From sequence record MN022785.1: a stretch of DNA of 64,000 bases, one strand, 5' to 3'. The stretch comes from Escherichia phage VEc20. The notes under the pieces are model-generated. The model saw only the letters and a program-made list of their open reading frames with translations. It did no database searches and was not told the DNA's origin. The position numbers and the translations under genes are program-made. This document shows, piece after piece, positions 4,604-52,673 of the stretch; position 1 is the stretch's first letter, and every line of letters begins with the position of its first letter.

Positions 4604-4971
4604 TTAAATTTAATGGCTTGAAGGAGACTAATAATTCTCAAGCGACTTCTTTCATCTTTAACCGTAAATGAAAGAGGGTCACCAGATTTCATAGTGATAG
4701 TGCATTCAAAATCAAAACCTTCGGGGACTTCTTCGAATAGGTCAAATTCTTCATCATATATTAGAACATTACTCTGAAAACTGTGAAGAATTTTTCCATC
4801 ATTTCCAGATGCTGTACTAATCATTGTAACATTATTACCTTTCATATCTTCAACGATAAATTCGCTTGTAGATATTACGGCATTAATAGAACCATTCCTA
4901 TAAATAGCAGAAAATAGATATTTCTGTTCTTCACCTTCACGAATGCGATATTTCTTACCGATTTTAAACAT
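4600..4971 (-). CDS. hypothetical protein
   Basis: 123-aa ORF, start overlaps stop of next ORF. Confidence 0.55.
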   Translation of the reverse strand: MFKIGKKYRIREGEEQKYLFSAIYRNGSINAVISTSEFIVEDMKGNNVTMISTASGNDGKILHSFQSNVLIYDEEFDLFEEVPEGFDFECTITMKSGDPLSFTVKDERSRLRIISLLQAIKFK

Positions 4972-15210: not shown

Positions 15211-15218
15211 GTATTTAT
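15211..15218 (-). promoter_or_regulatory. T4 late promoter TATAAATA upstream of soc
   Basis: plus strand tatttata = revcomp TATAAATA, about 30 nt upstream of soc ATG. Confidence 0.6.
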
Positions 15219-15389: not shown

Positions 15390-15599
15390 TCATTTTGAAT
15401 GCTCTATAATTAATTTTAAGGCTTCTTCACTGACAAAAATTTCGTCAGGACCTTTTTCTACAACCCAATCAACCCAATCAACCATACGAAGCTGATTAGA
15501 AAAGAGCTCACATACGAGCTCCTTGTCATAATCTTTAAATAGCTGGTCAATACGCTTCTTGCGGGCTTTCTTGAGCTGGCGTTTATTTAAACGAGCCAT
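15390..15599 (-). CDS. hypothetical basic protein
   Basis: 69-aa ORF between soc and 56. Confidence 0.5.
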   Translation of the reverse strand: MARLNKRQLKKARKKRIDQLFKDYDKELVCELFSNQLRMVDWVDWVVEKGPDEIFVSEEALKLIIEHSK

Positions 15600-16117
15600 T
15601 AATATCCTCTGTCTTGACGAGCGAAGTTTTCAGCATTTTTCAGATAATAAAGTTTAAAGATTTCCTCAGCTGACATTCCAAGAGCAATGAATTTATTCAT
15701 GAAAAAGTGAAATTGATCAATCAGTTCAAATTTAATTTCAAGCTGATCTTCGGGAGATAAATCTTGAATTTTCTTGGATTGCATTTCAGAATAACGTTTC
15801 TTCCAAGGTTTCCATACGGCAGAAGCTTCTTTTTCACCATTACTCATACCACCAAGAGAAGTATATAGCTCGCGAGTTTCATCTGCGATATAATCGTCTT
15901 GGTTTCGCAACCAAGCAAGAACTTCTCCTGCAGTTTCAAGTGAATCAGGATGACGATTTGTTTCTGGTTTATCATTAGCCAAACGAATCTGTAAAGACCG
16001 CTGCATATCAAGCATAACCTGCAATGGGTCAATATTGTGCATAATATTCTCAGCATATGCACGAGTTGCTTTATCAACACCTTCGATCAAATGAGCACAT
16101 TCATTAAAGTGAGCCAT
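15599..16117 (-). CDS. 56: dCTP pyrophosphatase gp56 (MazG-like)
   Basis: ORF track 15599..16210; true start taken as MAHFNECAHLIEG at 16117 with GGA RBS. Confidence 0.85.
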   Translation of the reverse strand: MAHFNECAHLIEGVDKATRAYAENIMHNIDPLQVMLDMQRSLQIRLANDKPETNRHPDSLETAGEVLAWLRNQDDYIADETRELYTSLGGMSNGEKEASAVWKPWKKRYSEMQSKKIQDLSPEDQLEIKFELIDQFHFFMNKFIALGMSAEEIFKLYYLKNAENFARQDRGY

Positions 16118-16188
16118 TATTTTTCCTTTCAATTCATGGATTAATAGATTAATTATACAATAAATATATAAAGCAATAAGGAGGACAT

Positions 16189-16389
16189 ATGGTACAAAAA
16201 TTAATGGCACTTGTTAATGCCATAAAAGGTAATAAGAAACGTATAGCTTTTACTATTTCTGCTATGATAGGAATTTTACTTTGGAATTTTGTTCTATCAC
16301 CTGTTGCAATTGCACATGGTATTAATATTCCAGTAGTTACTCTTGATACATTCGTAGATTTAGCATTTGCTTTAGTTGGGTTAATTTAA
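16189..16389 (+). CDS. small hydrophobic protein on plus strand (66 aa)
   Basis: canonical SD AAGGAGG 4-5 nt before ATG; hydrophobic segments; divergent from flanking genes. Confidence 0.45.
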   Translation: MVQKLMALVNAIKGNKKRIAFTISAMIGILLWNFVLSPVAIAHGINIPVVTLDTFVDLAFALVGLI

Positions 16390-17414
16390 ATCTTGGCATA
16401 TTTAGATAACCGCATTTTAGCCATCAACCCCTGGGCAATATTATTTTTCATATATTCCATAATTTGTTCAGGGGTTGCACCTTCCTTTCTAATCATATCA
16501 TTAACATCTTTTGATTTCCAGGGAGATTTATCCCAAAACATAACCCTTTCTCCTGCATCAACTAATTTAGTCATTCGCTTAATAGTGTCAGGATGACGAG
16601 GTTCATTATCTAAAACCCACACACGTCTATCTTTAAATGGAACAACTTCTAGGTCTAATTGACCACCTGTAATAGCTATACCATTTTCAATAAAAAGTGA
16701 ATCTATAGGTCCTTCTAGAACATATACATCACCATCTTTAACTCGTTCGACTCCATAGATTTTTGTTGCCTCAGGATAAGCTTTGATGGTGATATATTTT
16801 TGAGGAGCATCTTTCTTTAATGCACGTCCTTGAAAAGACTCAGCTTTTCCATTAGCATTATAAATTGGAATAACAAGACGAGGCTCAGGTATTTCCTTTT
16901 TATATGTTCCTGGTGCTATACTATTAACTAATTTAGGCCATTCAGTTGTAAACCAAAGATATTTCCATTTATCCTTTGGAATACAACGAGCTTTTACGTA
17001 TTTTATAATTGGATGGTCTTCCGCCAATTTATCTAGTCTAATGCATGACGGAAGAGATTTAATTATTTTCTTCTCAGGTTGTTTAGGAAGTTCTTTAGGT
17101 TTTTCTACTGGACGACTTTTACCTTTTTCTTTTCTTATTTCAAAGATATACTCACGATATAAATCAGGTTCAAACTCCTTTAAATATATTCCGATTGGTG
17201 CATGATAGTTACAGTTATAACAATGAATATTTCCTTCATTATTATCACCATAATACCATCCACGAGCTTTATTCTGGTCGGTTTTTGAATCTCCACAAAC
17301 AGGGCATCTAAACCGCAATTTAAAAGTTGAACTATTATTTACTTGTGTGAATTTAGGTAAATGAGCTAATGCACGATACGCAAACTCATTATCAATCCAA
17401 GGTATTGATGACAT
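16386..17414 (-). CDS. 61: DNA primase gp61
   Basis: 342-aa ORF; zinc-ribbon CPVCGDSK...CYNC and TOPRIM-like core; recognisable as T4 gp61. Confidence 0.9.
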   Translation of the reverse strand: MSSIPWIDNEFAYRALAHLPKFTQVNNSSTFKLRFRCPVCGDSKTDQNKARGWYYGDNNEGNIHCYNCNYHAPIGIYLKEFEPDLYREYIFEIRKEKGKSRPVEKPKELPKQPEKKIIKSLPSCIRLDKLAEDHPIIKYVKARCIPKDKWKYLWFTTEWPKLVNSIAPGTYKKEIPEPRLVIPIYNANGKAESFQGRALKKDAPQKYITIKAYPEATKIYGVERVKDGDVYVLEGPIDSLFIENGIAITGGQLDLEVVPFKDRRVWVLDNEPRHPDTIKRMTKLVDAGERVMFWDKSPWKSKDVNDMIRKEGATPEQIMEYMKNNIAQGLMAKMRLSKYAKI

Positions 17415-17416
17415 TT

Positions 17417-17581
17417 TTACTCTTCTTTTTCTTTAGATTCCTCTTTTTTCTTTTTAGGAATCTGCTCAGGACCTTTATTTACTACAGAGCCTGACGTTGT
17501 TCCAGTAGAGATATTTTCAGGATTACCACCTGAATCTCCAGCGACCATATCTTCTTTGATAAATTCTTTATATGTTTTCAT
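17417..17581 (-). CDS. hypothetical protein (61.1 position), 54 aa
   Basis: hand-translated MKTYKEFIKEDMVAGD...; stop adjacent to gene 61 start. Confidence 0.4.
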   Translation of the reverse strand: MKTYKEFIKEDMVAGDSGGNPENISTGTTSGSVVNKGPEQIPKKKKEESKEKEE

Positions 17582-17582
17582 A

Positions 17583-17939
17583 TTAACCTCTATTCATAAA
17601 AGCATTAAAAATTTGGTCATCAATAGATGGTGCAGTAATATTTTCTGCATCATTTAGCAAATCATTAATTTCATCAGATAGCATAACACATGTACCTTTA
17701 TTTCCTGTAATTGTTACTGCGCAATTACGAACGTTTTCTTTATTAAATTTTAGGTTAATATTTTCGTAATGAAAATCCTTTAATGCTGAATATATTTTTA
17801 AAATAAAATTGTCTTTTACTACAATAAACCCAACCTCACTATTAAAACGTGGTTCATGGAAACTGTAATAAACCTTTTCATCTATAAAATCGTATGAAAT
17901 TTTTTCCATTTTTAAATATGAAAATTCAGAACTATACAT
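17583..17939 (-). CDS. hypothetical protein (61.2 position)
   Basis: 118-aa ORF. Confidence 0.55.
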   Translation of the reverse strand: MYSSEFSYLKMEKISYDFIDEKVYYSFHEPRFNSEVGFIVVKDNFILKIYSALKDFHYENINLKFNKENVRNCAVTITGNKGTCVMLSDEINDLLNDAENITAPSIDDQIFNAFMNRG

Positions 17940-17951
17940 ACTAACCTCTAA

Positions 17952-18245
17952 TTACTCACCTACCACTTCAGCGATGATATTTTTGTTATTAAAGTTTTTA
18001 TCGCAATACAGAACATAATTATACTACATTACACCACCAGACTTAAGCTGTTTTTGCACTTCGGCTTTCATTTCAGGACGATCGCGCTCAACGATATTCA
18101 TAATATCTGCTTCAATTTGAGTTTCAACCTCAGTCTGATCAGCAGTCATAGACCATTCGCACAAATCTTTATCATAACCTGCCATAGCAGGCTGAGCAGC
18201 ACAAGAAGATAAAGCAAAAATTGTAGCAAAGATAAATTTTTTCAT
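17952..18245 (-). pseudogene. sp: spackle (61.3) homologue interrupted by in-frame TAG at codon 74
   Basis: 73-aa ORF with signal peptide ends at TAG (18024-18026); 23 more in-frame sense codons (YNYVLYCDKNFNNKNIIAEVVGE) run to TAA just before next gene's RBS; total 97 codons. Confidence 0.55.
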
Positions 18246-18271
18246 GATAATCTCCTCAGCAGTTTATGTTT

Positions 18272-18303
18272 ATATAGTATCTCAATTTCCAACAAAAGTA
18301 AAC
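18272..18303 (-). promoter_or_regulatory. T4 early-type promoter upstream of spackle homologue
   Basis: GTTTAC, 18 nt, TACTAT. Confidence 0.45.
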
Positions 18304-18305
18304 AG

Positions 18306-18563
18306 TTATTTTAAAACTTCTGCGTAATCACATGTTACAAACTGTTTCTCTAGCTTAACGATCTTACGAAAATACCTTTTACACTGACGAATCTGTCGCT
18401 TCGTAGGACGTACAGCAAACTTAATAAATTCAACTCGACCAAATGGAGGACTTTCTTCTGCTGGAATATCTAACACCAATTCCCACGTATCTGAAATAAG
18501 TGCTTTGAATTGCGTATTTTTCCTGACGTTATACGGAGTAGGTTTAAATAAAACAATATGCAT
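18306..18563 (-). CDS. hypothetical protein (61.4 position)
   Basis: ORF track 18306..18605; start trimmed to internal ATG to avoid overlap with dmd. Confidence 0.45.
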   Translation of the reverse strand: MHIVLFKPTPYNVRKNTQFKALISDTWELVLDIPAEESPPFGRVEFIKFAVRPTKRQIRQCKRYFRKIVKLEKQFVTCDYAEVLK

Positions 18564-18564
18564 A

Positions 18565-18747
18565 TTATCCTCGGCAATCCACTTCACACACTTTCTTGTC
18601 ATCAATGAAAGCTTTAACTAATGCTTTATTAACTTCGGCATATTGAGTAGTAGCCCATTGAACGTCATCTTTCATCATTGTAGTTTCTTTAGTAAACATG
18701 CTTTCATTCTTAAACCACCCCATAAAAACTACCTTTACCAATTCCAT
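18565..18747 (-). CDS. dmd: Dmd (61.5), inhibitor of host RnlA/LsoA toxins
   Basis: 60-aa ORF immediately downstream of gene 41; size and position match. Confidence 0.7.
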   Translation of the reverse strand: MELVKVVFMGWFKNESMFTKETTMMKDDVQWATTQYAEVNKALVKAFIDDKKVCEVDCRG

Positions 18748-18805
18748 AACAATCTCCTCATTTAACCAACAAGACTACTATACCATAGTCTTGTCAGCTT
18801 GTAAA

Positions 18806-20233
18806 CTAAAATTTTAATTCATTTGCCAAAGCATCTAACTGAGCTCGAGTGGATTCATTTCTTTGATAGCGATTCTGCTCAGCCTGAATCTGTTGTGAAC
18901 CTGCTACTTCGTTCACTTCAGTTGGAGTAGAATCTTGTTCAATTTCTACCCATTTTTGATTTCCTTTTTGAACACCCATCAAAAACTTATTCCATTTGTT
19001 CTTATCACCATATCGTGATTTGATTTGCTTAATGAGTTGTTGTTCAGCAGCTGCTAGCTCCTCGGTTTCAATGACCGCAAGCATAAAATCGGCTGTTGCT
19101 GGAAGACCAGCAGATTCTGCAATATCGCTCATGTTAACATCAGAAGAATCCCAAGCCTGTTTACCAACCTGTGCTGCAGTCCAAAGAACAGTTTCGGTTT
19201 CAACAGCAAGAGCACGCAATTCCTCTGCAATAGCTTTAACAGTTGTGTAACTATTTTCTGAATAAACTCTAATGCGGCAAGATTTACAAATACCTAGATA
19301 GTCGACAATAATGATTGTTGGAACAAAATTCTTCTTGAGCTTCAATTCGTTTAAAAGTGATCGAAATGTATTAGCGTCTGCTCCACCAGTAGGATATTGC
19401 TTAACGATTAAACGACCAAGGGTAGATTTCTCACGCCATTTTTCCATTTTTCCTTTATATTCAGCGTAAGAAATATGCCCATCATCAATGTCATCAAGAG
19501 AAACATCAAGCATGTTAGCGTCAATACGCTTAGCACAGACTTCTTCTGCCATTTCCATGGAAATGTAAAGAACGTTATGACCAAGCTGCAAATAATCTGC
19601 TGCTAATGAACAAAGTCCTAATGATTTACCGACGTTAACGCCAGCCATTAAAACGTTCAGTGTTCCAGTCTCAGCTCCGCCTTTAGTAATTTTGTTTAGA
19701 ATTCTGAGTTTAAATGGAACCTTACGAGCTTTATTCATATAAGATAGCCAACGTGCTTCATAGTCATCCATCCAATCATGGCCAACGTAGCTATCAAATG
19801 AAATTGATAATGCTTGGCGCATGATGTCAGGAATAGCACCTACATCTGGCATTTTCTTATTTCGTTTTTCTGGAGGAAGCTCAGCATTGGTTTGAATTTC
19901 GATTATTTTAGACGTAGCATTAAACATCGCCCTTTGCTGAACATATTTTTCTGTTTCTTTTATTAACCAGCTGTGGTCTTCTGGAGAATCAGCCAGTTTT
20001 GAAATAAGTGTTTTTACACCAGAATATTCTGTTTCAGTAAATGAACTATTTTCTAATGCAACATTTAACGCATTAATAGATGGAACGCTATGATACTCAT
20101 TAACATGAGATTTAATTAATTTGAATGTATTTTTAGCTGGACCACTTTCAAAATATTCTGAATCCATATATGGCCAAACTTTTGAAAAATAAGCTTGATC
20201 AAATATGAGATGAGAAAGAATAATTTCTACCAC
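18806..20233 (-). CDS. 41: replicative DNA helicase gp41 (DnaB-like)
   Basis: 475-aa ORF; Walker A GVNVGKS; size matches T4 gp41. Confidence 0.9.
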   Translation of the reverse strand: MVEIILSHLIFDQAYFSKVWPYMDSEYFESGPAKNTFKLIKSHVNEYHSVPSINALNVALENSSFTETEYSGVKTLISKLADSPEDHSWLIKETEKYVQQRAMFNATSKIIEIQTNAELPPEKRNKKMPDVGAIPDIMRQALSISFDSYVGHDWMDDYEARWLSYMNKARKVPFKLRILNKITKGGAETGTLNVLMAGVNVGKSLGLCSLAADYLQLGHNVLYISMEMAEEVCAKRIDANMLDVSLDDIDDGHISYAEYKGKMEKWREKSTLGRLIVKQYPTGGADANTFRSLLNELKLKKNFVPTIIIVDYLGICKSCRIRVYSENSYTTVKAIAEELRALAVETETVLWTAAQVGKQAWDSSDVNMSDIAESAGLPATADFMLAVIETEELAAAEQQLIKQIKSRYGDKNKWNKFLMGVQKGNQKWVEIEQDSTPTEVNEVAGSQQIQAEQNRYQRNESTRAQLDALANELKF

Positions 20234-21838: not shown

Positions 21839-22681
21839 TTAATCAACTGCTATTGGATGAATAGCATTAAACTTATGAAATGCTTCTGATTTTTCTTTAC
21901 GTGAAACGCACATGCGAAGAACCTTTAATGGCTCGTCTTCTTCACCCAACGATTTTCGTTTTTCAATATTAGAAGTTTTCCAACGAGCTTGCTCTGGAAA
22001 CTCTCTATTGATTTGCTCAAGCGCTCTATTATGTTTAGAATTACTACGAATTGAACTGCACCCGCCAGGAGCTTGTGCTTTTCCAGATACAACCAGATAT
22101 TTGAACAAGGCCAAATGCGGATAACCTTGATTAATTAAATTGAGAAATGCATACATATCTTCGCACAAATCAATTTTTCCATACCCAATTTGTTCTGTCG
22201 TAAGTTTTCCAAGGTCATACCATGTATTCGTGAATCCATATGAGTTTTCACGATAATTGCCCCAAGATGAAGTAATTTTAAAAATTGGTAGACGAGCATG
22301 ACCGTGATAATACCCGCAATCCATGGCATCTTCAACGTATTGAATTAATTCATAGAACTGTTCACGAGTTAATTGATTAATTTTATCTACACGCCGTTTA
22401 TCGTCTCTCTTTCGTATTGAACTCATACGAATAGTAGTATCATCATCAATCATCCAGATTCGTTGACCTGCATACATATCAGTAATTGCTTTACGAGTAC
22501 CGGCAATTCCATTAACATCATCAGGAATAGTTACAATTTTAGCTCTAGACCCATAAGCATCATAATAAGCTTTTTCTTCGTGTTCACGCACTACAATATG
22601 GGGTTCATAATCAGTCGGAAACATATTAAGGGCAGAAACTGCCCCTACACGCTGATAACTTGGAATTACGAATTGAATCAT
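21839..22681 (-). CDS. GT-A-fold glycosyltransferase (DxD motif), possibly a beta-alpha glucosyltransferase acting on HMC DNA
   Basis: 280-aa ORF at the beta-gt position; WMIDDDTTIRM motif; not the 351-aa T4 beta-gt. Confidence 0.6.
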   Translation of the reverse strand: MIQFVIPSYQRVGAVSALNMFPTDYEPHIVVREHEEKAYYDAYGSRAKIVTIPDDVNGIAGTRKAITDMYAGQRIWMIDDDTTIRMSSIRKRDDKRRVDKINQLTREQFYELIQYVEDAMDCGYYHGHARLPIFKITSSWGNYRENSYGFTNTWYDLGKLTTEQIGYGKIDLCEDMYAFLNLINQGYPHLALFKYLVVSGKAQAPGGCSSIRSNSKHNRALEQINREFPEQARWKTSNIEKRKSLGEEDEPLKVLRMCVSRKEKSEAFHKFNAIHPIAVD

Positions 22682-23319
22682 TTAAGTGCCTTACATTTGT
22701 CAAAATGGTATCTTGTCATATTTGGCCCACGTCCTTTTAGTCCGCAATGCGGACATATTTTTTCTATCAAATTATGAGGTTTTCCTTTACGATTTTTAGA
22801 CATCGTTTCTTTAATTATTTTAGCTTTTTCTACGCCAAAAATTTCTTCATAAGTTTTACCAGAATTTTCCTTGGCTCGATTTATAATTCCATATGCCTGC
22901 TCATTTTTACCATACATTGGATTACCTTCGCCTTTCATTCTTTTAGAATGATCAGGACGCTTGATTCCACGAAAGGCATTTCCGCACTTATATCTTTCTT
23001 CTGGAGATAGTTTTTTACCGTACATTCCATTTAATTTGCCTGGAAAACTTCCTCCCCATGCTTCATTCTTTAAATTATATGAATCCGGACAATTAGCAGC
23101 ATCTAAACAAGTTAAAATAATTTCTTCAACCTGTCTAAACATTGGTCCTTCATATAATATTTCTTTATTAAAGGATTTTATTCCATATTTCTTTTTAGCA
23201 TGTTGCCAAACTACACCCGAACCATCATAATTCGGGTTGTGACCATCATGACTTCCTATATACCACTTTTTAGTTTTAGGATGTTTATACTTATAAACAT
23301 GTGGCACATTTACTTCCAT
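22678..23319 (-). CDS. GIY-YIG homing endonuclease (Seg-like) with NUMOD3-type DNA-binding repeats
   Basis: 213-aa ORF; N-terminal VYKYKH...KWYIGSHDG; repeats GKLNGMYGKK and GEGNPMYGKN; overlaps both neighbours. Confidence 0.75.
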   Translation of the reverse strand: MEVNVPHVYKYKHPKTKKWYIGSHDGHNPNYDGSGVVWQHAKKKYGIKSFNKEILYEGPMFRQVEEIILTCLDAANCPDSYNLKNEAWGGSFPGKLNGMYGKKLSPEERYKCGNAFRGIKRPDHSKRMKGEGNPMYGKNEQAYGIINRAKENSGKTYEEIFGVEKAKIIKETMSKNRKGKPHNLIEKICPHCGLKGRGPNMTRYHFDKCKALK

Positions 23320-50538: not shown

Positions 50539-51519
50539 TTATTTCAGAAGAGTAACCTCAGCGATTTCTTCCCAACCGTTTTTGTCGGTCATAATAAAGT
50601 CAGCAAGATAAAGAGCAGTACGCAGTGAAACATTACGTAAACGGTTAACATTGACTTTCATCCATGATAATGCTTTATAAGTTTCTTCATCAGAAAGACC
50701 GCGCTTTTGCATCATGTCGGTTGAAAGAATAACATCTTCAACCCTGACCATAATTTCTTCATTAGTGTGAACACCCAAATCTAAATAAACTGAGCGGGAC
50801 ACTAATGCTTGTAAATGTGGAGCAAGTTTAGTACCACGGTCTAATTCGCGGTCAATGTCAACGTTTGTGATAAAAACAATCGTTCCTTTAAATTCAAACT
50901 CACGCTCAATGCCTTTTTCTTCTAAGTAAGAAGATGCGGTGCTCCAGCAGACTTTGCGGGTCTCTCCGGTGTCCAGAGCAGCTTTCAGAAGATTAAGAAT
51001 GTCCATATCAGAGAAAACATCCACATCATCAATCAAAAGGACAGAATTCTCTTCACGATTATTCCAAAGCTGTTCATAAAGACCGATACCGGAGATTTTA
51101 CCGTTAATGCTTTTATATTCAATGTATCCATTATCATTTGCTTTATTCAAAGCTTTATCTAAAGAATACGTTTTACCAATACCCGCCGCACCAGAGATAA
51201 TTAATGAACGAATGTTTCCGTTAATAATACCATTCGTCATCATTCCCATAACATTAAATCTTTTATTAATGCGGGTTTTCATATCTTCATATGATTCTTT
51301 AACTTCTTCAACTTTTACACCATCATATGAAATGTCTGATTTGTAAACCCAAACACCGCGACGCTTACCGTCAATTTCAACAAAAACTTTACCATCTCCT
51401 TGTGCATCCACCGGAGCATTATCTGGGAACCATTCACCTAAGAGCTCAAAAGTTCCAGAGATTTCTTTACCAAAGTAGATACCCTTATTGATAGTTACAG
51501 TTTTCATTTTATTCTCCAA
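50539..51519 (-). CDS. P-loop AAA-type ATPase of unknown function
   Basis: 326-aa ORF; Walker A GAAGIGKT, Walker B VLLIDDVD. Confidence 0.65.
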   Translation of the reverse strand: MENKMKTVTINKGIYFGKEISGTFELLGEWFPDNAPVDAQGDGKVFVEIDGKRRGVWVYKSDISYDGVKVEEVKESYEDMKTRINKRFNVMGMMTNGIINGNIRSLIISGAAGIGKTYSLDKALNKANDNGYIEYKSINGKISGIGLYEQLWNNREENSVLLIDDVDVFSDMDILNLLKAALDTGETRKVCWSTASSYLEEKGIEREFEFKGTIVFITNVDIDRELDRGTKLAPHLQALVSRSVYLDLGVHTNEEIMVRVEDVILSTDMMQKRGLSDEETYKALSWMKVNVNRLRNVSLRTALYLADFIMTDKNGWEEIAEVTLLK

Positions 51520-51542
51520 TTTTACATTTGTTTTGATAGGGT

Positions 51543-51573
51543 AATAGTATCACACTACTACCCTGCTGTAAAC
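51543..51573 (-). promoter_or_regulatory. T4 early-type promoter upstream of AAA ATPase
   Basis: GTTTAC, 18 nt, TGATACTAT. Confidence 0.45.
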
Positions 51574-51576
51574 AAT

Positions 51577-51840
51577 TTATTTTAATGTTTGCCAAATTTT
51601 TACTGCTTCGCGACGAGATACTTCTACAGCTCCAAGTTCTACAGCTTTTTGGCGTCGCCGAGCGTGTAAGTCATAATGTTTAATGCGTTTATCTTGAAAC
51701 CAAGAACGTTTCATTCCTATTGCTTCTGCCATTTCGTGAAGCTCTTCAATATCTCCATCAGTGAACATATGACAATTTTTAGTTGGATGACCGCGAAGTT
51801 TCCATCCATGATTCATTAAAACATCTACGTAAACTGTCAT
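51577..51840 (-). CDS. hypothetical protein
   Basis: 87-aa ORF. Confidence 0.5.
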   Translation of the reverse strand: MTVYVDVLMNHGWKLRGHPTKNCHMFTDGDIEELHEMAEAIGMKRSWFQDKRIKHYDLHARRRQKAVELGAVEVSRREAVKIWQTLK

Positions 51841-51986
51841 TGATTCTTCTCCAAATAAGTTTCGATAATTTTCTGGGCGAGATAAACCGCGTTATCTTCA
51901 GTTGCGTCTTCTAAGAAACTTTCAAAACACTCTGAAATTTCTTCTGTATCAATCAACTTTTTTACTTCAATTGGTGTAATTTTCAT
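51837..51986 (-). CDS. hypothetical small acidic protein (49 aa)
   Basis: hand-translated MKITPIEVKKLIDTEEISECF...; ATGA overlap with next gene. Confidence 0.35.
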   Translation of the reverse strand: MKITPIEVKKLIDTEEISECFESFLEDATEDNAVYLAQKIIETYLEKNQ

Positions 51987-52020
51987 TTTGTTTTCCGTTT
52001 AAGTGTTTGTTTTGATAGTT

Positions 52021-52052
52021 GTATAGTACCATAAAGCTTTATGCTTGTAAAC
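52021..52052 (-). promoter_or_regulatory. T4 early-type promoter (GTTTAC, 18 nt, TGGTACTAT)
   Basis: promoter half of a promoter + stem-loop module. Confidence 0.5.
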
Positions 52053-52054
52053 AA

Positions 52055-52085
52055 CTTTGTGAAAAATTTTTGAAATAAAAAAGGG
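52055..52085. repeat. 31-bp exact direct repeat copy 1 (ctttgtgaaaaatttttgaaataaaaaaggg); copy 2 at 52675..52705
   Basis: identical 31-mers 620 bp apart, flanking ORF 52111..52611. Confidence 0.8.
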
Positions 52086-52106
52086 GACCTCTAGGGCCCC
52101 TTTTAT
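52085..52106 (-). terminator. stem-loop (aaaagggg ... ccccttttt)
   Basis: 8-bp stem with 10-nt loop, U-tract on both sides. Confidence 0.4.
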
Positions 52107-52110
52107 GCTT

Positions 52111-52611
52111 TTATTCCATTTCTATTATATGCATGCTCTTTTTGCTATCAAAATATATGTTTTTAACTGTTAACTCCGAATTAATTGGCAATAAAAACTC
52201 TCTTTCATAATCCACCATAGAAAGATTATCATAAAGCTTATTAAGCTTATCATCATCAATCTGGCCAGATTCTTCAATTGCGATTAAATTTTCTAAAATT
52301 TCAATCATAGCAGTTGAATAGTCAAAAACGTTTGCATTTTTTAACACTATTAAAACATTAGTCATATAGCGTTCTGCCGCAAATGTTTCAGCTATATGAG
52401 ATTCACTACTAAAGGAAGTTATTCTTTTAAATTTGATTCTCCTATTAACTTCAAACTTATAAGATAGTACTTCCTCTATTGTAAGTCCTCTAAAAAGCAC
52501 GTCTTTAATCTCAAGTTTGTCTTTAATGTAATCATTAACACGCTTATGATTAAAATCATTAATTTTGTTGCCAAGGCATTTCATTAAAATATGCATTGTG
52601 TTTCTCTTCAA
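52111..52611 (-). CDS. hypothetical protein in promoter/stem-loop cassette
   Basis: 166-aa ORF with own early promoter, flanked by hairpins and 31-bp direct repeats. Confidence 0.55.
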   Translation of the reverse strand: MKRNTMHILMKCLGNKINDFNHKRVNDYIKDKLEIKDVLFRGLTIEEVLSYKFEVNRRIKFKRITSFSSESHIAETFAAERYMTNVLIVLKNANVFDYSTAMIEILENLIAIEESGQIDDDKLNKLYDNLSMVDYEREFLLPINSELTVKNIYFDSKKSMHIIEME

Positions 52612-52643
52612 TTTTTAAAGAACAATTAATTAACTACAAATAT

Positions 52644-52673
52644 ATTATAATATGCTTTATGATAGAAGTAAAC
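52644..52673 (-). promoter_or_regulatory. T4 early-type promoter (GTTTAC, 17 nt, TTATAAT)
   Basis: upstream of ORF 52111..52611. Confidence 0.5.

Follow-up and report, generated by a model that had tools for sequence, protein, structure and literature searches.

In the stretch of 64,000 nucleotides of the Escherichia phage VEc20 genome analysed here (hereafter the window), genes 56 and 61 are separated by an intergenic span of 268 bp (16118..16385), a distance that had been given in the initial annotation and that the coordinates confirm. The elements found in and around this interval are collected in Table 1. An open reading frame of 66 codons occupies the plus strand between the two genes, and the AAGGAGG motif that the same annotation had placed before it can be read directly from the sequence. 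The stop codons of this ORF and of gene 61 overlap by 4 bp (16386-16389), and an identical overlap is present in T4, G9062 and moha; in Gaprivervirus the homologue of the ORF and gene 61 do not overlap, being separated by about 110-210 bp. Over the junction region (15400-17600) the window is 100% identical to vB_EcoM_NBG2, a Tequatrovirus and the closest record here. Outside the junction the identity to NBG2 is 93-97%, with several indels, and over the first 25 kb of the window no record of the phage collection exceeds 97% identity.

Table 1. Features of the junction between genes 56 and 61, in window coordinates
Feature	Position	Strand	Basis and remarks
Gene 56 (dCTPase/dUTPase)	15599..16117	-	ORF list; annotated dUTPase / dCTP pyrophosphatase in NBG2 and relatives; left flank
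MotA-type middle promoter of gene 56	16152..16176	-	MotA box TTGCTTTA (16169-16176), 11-nt spacer, -10 TATAAT (16152-16157)
Late-promoter-like motif AATAAATA	16159..16166	+	7/8 of TATAAATA; predicted start near 16172
Shine-Dalgarno sequence AAGGAGG	16178..16184	+	Read directly; 4 nt before ATG
66-aa ORF (dam.1 / RB32ORF030w / phrog_2024)	16189..16389	+	66 aa + stop; predicted small inner-membrane protein
Terminator-like hairpin ATGGCATT-AACA-AGTGCCAT, then TAATTTTTGT	16204..16223	-	Terminator scan; 3' of gene 61, in ORF codons 6-12
Gene 61 (DNA primase)	16386..17414	-	ORF list and NBG2 annotation; convergent with the 66-aa ORF

The ORF had at first been seen as standing here instead of dam, the gene which, in T4, was said to lie between 56 and 61. 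The T4 order was given correctly, as the reference record NC_000866 has 56 (16270-16785), dam (16846-17625), a 309-bp unannotated stretch and 61 (17935-18963). That dam-61 gap of T4, however, already carries the same ORF (T4 17738-17938), with 62 of 66 residues identical and all four differences conservative. Coexisting with dam in T4, the ORF is therefore no substitute for it. While it is left without annotation in NC_000866, it is named dam.1 in T4T (HM137666), RB32ORF030w in RB14/RB32 and VR7ORF033w in VR7, and hundreds of other records label it 'hypothetical protein'. All these are the same gene as the ORF of the window, at the same position, in the same orientation and convergent with gene 61, and we use the name dam.1 for it below. 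The difference with dam.1 of T4 is that, in the window, the ORF directly follows the gene 56 promoter, the dam cassette being missing.

A tblastn search retrieved dam.1 from 692 phage records, each time beside the primase gene, about 500 of these records having the Tequatrovirus-type ORF. Its amino acid sequence is 92-97% identical within Tequatrovirus and 46-56% identical to that of Mosigvirus and Gaprivervirus. The same plus-strand slot, between 56 (or dam) and 61, is used in T4, G9062, moha, VR7, TH40, DCP80 and 10 IMG/VR loci. Residues 2-66 match phrog_2024, a family with no assigned function, over profile positions 1-65 of 65 (hmmscan E 3.3e-31). The early view of the ORF as a credible plus-strand gene is borne out both by this conservation across three genera and by the RefSeq annotation of NBG2, where it is the sole plus-strand CDS across the first ~72 kb. 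dam.1 is part of the core neighbourhood of the primase gene, and hundreds of genomes have it annotated already. The family itself is very narrow. Beyond it, we found no homologue: Pfam and NCBIfam gave no match to the dam.1 product, and when 1.84 billion representative proteins were searched with a profile, the six matches were all family members (6 representatives at 50% identity). Foldseek against viral models gave the orthologue and, at 23-31% identity, two 63-aa proteins, of which one belongs to an Enterobacter phage. A literature search found no paper on dam.1 or ORF030w, its function or its expression, and nothing usable on ribosome profiling or unannotated small proteins of T4, or on dam in T6.

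Is dam.1 translated into a protein? The comparison set comprised 17 loci, reduced to 15 distinct coding sequences, and the reading frame is unbroken at all 17, with a length of 66 or 65 aa. A 63-aa allele exists in vB_EcoM_OE5505, so that the length variants 66, 65 and 63 aa differ by whole-codon steps. In every informative pair dN/dS lies between 0.09 and 0.59, and between genera the frame is still open with synonymous sites near or at saturation (pS 0.59-0.80). Variable columns number 45, 21 and 56 at codon positions 1, 2 and 3, respectively, position 2 thus being the least variable, and A-I-K, W32-N33-F34, P38, G44, P48 and V56-D57 are invariant. A frame of 66 codons would stay open by chance in roughly 1% of cases (an estimate made with a stop probability of about 7% per codon). 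Since the ORF shares only 4 nt with another gene, an overlapping frame is no explanation of this conservation pattern. We conclude, from the way in which the sequence has varied, that dam.1 should be considered a real protein-coding gene.

On the opposite strand, the window and moha both have the gene 61 frame open for 66 codons beyond its stop (minus strand, 16189-16385 in the window); in VR7 this frame contains one stop. That gene 61 might be read through its stop codon into the antisense of the ORF was considered and set aside, given this stop in VR7 and the non-overlap of the two genes in Gaprivervirus. The extended open frame probably results from codon usage.

The signals preceding dam.1 have been maintained along with its frame. 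GGAGG or AAGGAG stands at the equivalent place in all 17 loci, the spacing between the Shine-Dalgarno sequence and the ATG being short in the window (4 nt). In the usual layout of T4 late genes, a late-promoter motif is followed by a short leader with a Shine-Dalgarno sequence. Here, ATAAATA (16160-16166, plus strand) is located 22 nt 5' of the dam.1 ATG, and in the window, T4/G9062, moha and VR7/TH40, that is, in four differing upstream contexts, its distance on the 5' side of the ATG is kept within 18-24 nt. The bases immediately 5' of it diverge between dam-less Tequatrovirus, T4, G9062, Mosigvirus and Gaprivervirus, and the base that precedes it is A, G or C, never T, in the lineages compared. 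In the window as a whole, a region of early genes, ATAAATA is depleted about 4-fold, with 9 sites against 40 +/- 6 expected from shuffles (4900, 6810, 16160 and 61548 on the plus strand; 15212, 42999, 57225, 63598 and 63611 on the minus strand). The copy at 15212-15218 (minus strand) is upstream of soc, where the T4 record has the putative late promoter P(L) 15.32. Late transcription could start from the plus-strand copies at 4900, 6810 and 61548, giving antisense RNA or expressing small genes that lack an annotation.

Late promoters of T4 have TATAAATA from -13 to -6; among T4-like phages, the T at -13 is reported to be poorly conserved (PMC1524935). No sigma-70-like site was found on the plus strand of the 56-61 interval. 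Because ATAAATA is kept in four contexts and depleted elsewhere, because it also precedes soc, because position -13 is variable and because the plus strand shows no sigma-70-like site, we infer a putative gp55-type late promoter before dam.1, from which transcription would start near 16172 and give a leader of 17 nt. Like the T4 late promoters, which depend on gp55/gp33/gp45, it would combine ATAAATA with a short Shine-Dalgarno leader at a conserved distance; unlike them, it has A, G or C in place of the -13 T.

The other promoter of the interval belongs to gene 56. MotA-dependent middle promoters carry (a/t)(a/t)(a/t)TGCTT(t/c)A about 12 nt before a sigma-70 -10 element. We used the search pattern TGCTT[TCA][AC]-N10-14-TAnnnT, which occurs on the 5' side of the gene 56 ATG, at a distance of 34 nt in the window, T4 and G9062 and of 36 nt in VR7. 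The promoter of the window is the counterpart, with the same geometry, of T4 P(M)16.53, the mot-box and -10 of which are annotated in X01416; in T4 it is the oriA primer promoter, and NC_000866 annotates oriA here. The middle promoter of 56 and the ATAAATA of dam.1 are thus placed back to back, in an arrangement that differs from one lineage to another: ATAAATA falls in the spacer of the gene 56 promoter in the window, overlaps the MotA box or lies upstream of it in VR7 and moha, and is about 950 bp off in T4. Its location within the spacer is met only in dam-less Tequatroviruses. We reconstructed no simple history of insertion or deletion for the junction type of the window, in which the order of ATAAATA and MotA box is swapped when compared with T4, moha and VR7.

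The terminator-like hairpin of the minus strand is weak (-8.9 kcal/mol, z-score -1.7); its sequence is identical in T4, and nothing clearly equivalent was seen by eye in moha or VR7. In Tequatroviruses, transcription of gene 61 may terminate at this hairpin. The terminator scan found no plus-strand terminator after dam.1, so that a putative dam.1 transcript would continue antisense into gene 61.

We now come to dam itself. That no DPPY-type methyltransferase is encoded in the window, as first reported, was upheld by two approaches. A tblastn search with T4 Dam found no homologue in the 64 kb (best E 4.3, over 28 aa), and DPPY is absent from all window ORFs of at least 80 aa, the methyltransferase-motif scan picking up only chance NPPY and SPPF in frames of 103-107 aa. 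As a positive control of the Pfam search, T4 Dam matched PF02086 (D12 class) at 6.7e-51. For the possibility that dam is located elsewhere in the genome, NBG2 was used as a proxy outside the window, from which it differs beyond the junction. No T4 Dam homologue was found by tblastn in its remaining 102 kb (best E 0.76), so that absence holds across the window and across the rest of NBG2, the latter being that of another phage. As far as its sequence was covered, the phage is without dam at the 56-61 junction and throughout the 64-kb window. DpnI/MboI digestion would be a poor measure of its methylation, DNA with glucosyl-hydroxymethylcytosine being resistant to most restriction enzymes.

The window also has segments that are missing from NBG2. 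An ORF of 213 aa with a NUMOD3 motif, resembling seg-type homing endonucleases (22678-23319, minus strand), lies between the glucosyltransferase gene and 42, a place where NBG2 does not have it. Positions 51519-52668 are likewise missing from NBG2, and code for an 87-aa DUF4031 protein (51577-51840, minus strand) and for a 166-aa ORF (52111-52611, minus strand) with no Pfam match. None of these products (the seg-like endonuclease, the DUF4031 protein and the 166-aa ORF) is a methyltransferase.

The initial annotation implied that a junction devoid of dam was unusual. This impression is reversed when one counts the records. A junction probe of 136 bp, running from the first part of gene 56 through the intergenic promoters into the beginning of the ORF, has a contiguous match in 293 phage records at 90-100% identity, and T6 and RB14, which are among the phages with this allele, match a 301-bp probe of the whole gap at 97-98%. 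Dam at 90% identity or above is present in about 182 phage records, T4 and T2 having the gene in the 56-61 slot. The order 56, ORF, 61 without dam is also that of Mosigvirus (moha) and Gaprivervirus (VR7, TH40, DCP80). By this count of 293 versus about 182 records, the dam-less junction is the majority state, hence the commoner allele, among Tequatroviruses. In NC_054917.1 (vB_EcoM_G50), the match of the junction probe is confined to its right-hand two thirds and lies (17294-17385) about 1 kb farther on than in dam-less phages; this junction may represent a fourth allele of the 56-dam.1 slot.

When present, dam may come with a companion. In G9062-type phages, a gene of 186 aa (phrog_8706) is placed directly upstream of dam, on the same strand. 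Its product has a conserved FD...EIK motif and a PD-(D/E)XK nuclease fold, with a match to Pfam DpnII that stays below threshold (E 0.0045). T4 keeps only the last ~21 codons of this gene, at 95% identity, between dam and dam.1, so that its dam looks like what is left of a nuclease-methylase cassette that had two genes. The cassette of T4 and T2, the enzyme of which is a D12-class GATC N6-adenine methyltransferase (PF02086), uses the very slot that is seen in the window, where 56, 61 and both divergent promoters remain and the cassette is missing; elsewhere, it is accompanied by the full 186-aa gene (G9062) or by the ~21-codon remnant (T4). There are two gp56 alleles, that of the window being 99% identical to the G9062 protein and about 70% identical to that of T4; the identity of gp61 is 99%. 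A diverged gp56 beside a gp61 of 99% identity points to a recombination boundary within the 56-dam.1 interval. The breakpoint of the gene 56 allele may be related to SegF homing in T4; segF is missing from the window.

What the dam.1 product may do has to be approached through its predicted structure. AlphaFold2, run on a shallow alignment, gives helices at 2-12, 16-42 and 52-63, with a pLDDT of 76. Hydropathy is maximal at residues 19-42 (helix 16-42 exceeding 2) and at the extreme C-terminus. All basic residues are found at 4-18, acidic residues are limited to D53 and D57, and the protein ends in ...FVDLAFALVGLI, K and R being absent past residue 18. The model suggests a small inner-membrane protein with a cytoplasmic N-terminus, a single transmembrane helix and a periplasmic tail of ~24 residues, the N-terminus being placed in the cytoplasm because the basic residues are clustered there (positive-inside rule). 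Imm, the RI antiholin and holin T of T4, as well as class II holins, are likewise small, hydrophobic and predicted to lie in the inner membrane with the N-terminus inside, but the dam.1 product has no sequence or profile similarity to any of them. It also differs from these small T4 membrane proteins and from class II holins by its one clear transmembrane helix, by its uncharged C-terminus and by the lack of linkage of its gene to lysis genes. As a best guess, of low confidence, which is drawn from the topology and from the presumed late timing, we would see in it an accessory role in the envelope, in lysis timing or in exclusion, rather than an enzymatic one.

Three other explanations have to be set against this picture. 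One might argue that the ORF is untranslated, and that the interval has been conserved as regulatory DNA or RNA, accommodating the terminator of 61, the gene 56 promoter with its oriA primer or a late antisense RNA directed against the 3' end of 61, the open frame being incidental. This would account for the terminator-like hairpin of the minus strand being within the ORF, for the gene 56 promoter abutting its Shine-Dalgarno sequence, for the convergent overlap with gene 61 in a context where no plus-strand terminator was found, and for the lack of an ORF annotation in the T4 reference record. It would leave aside the fact that the frame remains open at 46-56% amino acid identity over three genera despite near-saturation of synonymous sites, with dN/dS below 1 in all pairs and codon position 2 varying least. 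The Shine-Dalgarno sequence and the ATG are conserved, the invariants (W32-N33-F34, P38, G44, P48, D57) are those expected of a protein, the hairpin is not kept outside Tequatrovirus, and the Gaprivervirus ORF is clear of gene 61. We therefore find this explanation improbable. That dam was lost recently and in this genome alone, by deletion or as an assembly artefact, is hardly conceivable: dam is indeed found at this place in T4 and T2, and the junction looks rearranged when compared with T4, Mosigvirus and Gaprivervirus, with ATAAATA inside the spacer of the 56 promoter, but the same junction is present in 293 independent records, T6 and RB14 included, and the sister genera Mosigvirus and Gaprivervirus are also without dam in the slot.

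The third explanation bears on the product, which could be a second holin or a pinholin-like lysis protein. Class II holins have a size similar to that of the dam.1 product, which is small and hydrophobic and is encoded behind a late-promoter-like motif, and UniProt gives the name 'Holin' to the vB_EcoM_OE5505 orthologue (A0A482MZV5). Yet that name is unreviewed, and dam.1 has no Pfam or PHROG functional match. Further, the charged, usually basic and hydrophilic tail of holins is absent, the C-terminus being hydrophobic and the only charges after residue 18 being D53 and D57; a single clear transmembrane helix is predicted, although holins require no more than at least one; and dam.1 is flanked by 56 and 61, away from the endolysin. 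These phages already possess a holin t, which is annotated, like the spanins, elsewhere in NBG2. Because the C-terminus is hydrophobic and uncharged, because there is a single transmembrane helix and because dam.1 is not linked to lysis genes, we have dropped the holin label, and consider a lysis protein of this kind very improbable.

We can thus understand the locus, with considerable assurance, as that of a Tequatrovirus carrying the common 'empty' allele of an accessory slot between 56 and 61, which holds the middle promoter of 56 and the conserved dam.1. The plus strand provides a self-contained gene, in which ATAAATA, resembling a late promoter, is followed by a leader of 17 nt with AAGGAGG and by the ORF of 66 codons. 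dam is an optional cassette which, when present, is inserted between the two divergent promoters, those of 56 and dam.1. In this scheme dam.1 would be transcribed late by gp55-RNA polymerase from about 16172 (about 17720 in T4), its transcript possibly extending antisense into gene 61 as well. The product would begin with an amphipathic helix and a KGNKKR patch, followed by one transmembrane helix of ~25 residues containing the invariant WNF, then by the periplasmic tail of ~24 residues ending in a short hydrophobic helix, and it would work at the inner membrane late in infection. A more ambitious proposal would make of dam.1 a late inner-membrane protein with a late role in the envelope and a transcript running antisense into the primase-helicase operon, and of T4 dam the remnant of a decayed nuclease-methylase pair. 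We put it forward tentatively, as something possible that we would rather doubt than defend.

The junction is, in the end, an ordinary and already annotated situation, a dam-less allele of a variable slot beside a conserved small gene. For a T-even phage, being without dam is normal, and the contrary impression was false. T4, whose genome is among the best studied, carries a conserved and probably late-expressed gene of a predicted membrane protein that NC_000866 omits. The 56-61 slot illustrates how accessory cassettes, dam with or without a gene of nuclease fold, fit between back-to-back promoters, neither of which is disturbed. If the more ambitious proposal were true, dam.1 could be an undescribed player in lysis timing or inhibition, in superinfection exclusion or in membrane-associated assembly; present in the hydroxymethylcytosine T-even genera, T4 included, it could send late antisense RNA into the primase-helicase operon; and the dam gene of T4 would be the surviving half of a decayed cassette resembling a restriction-modification system.
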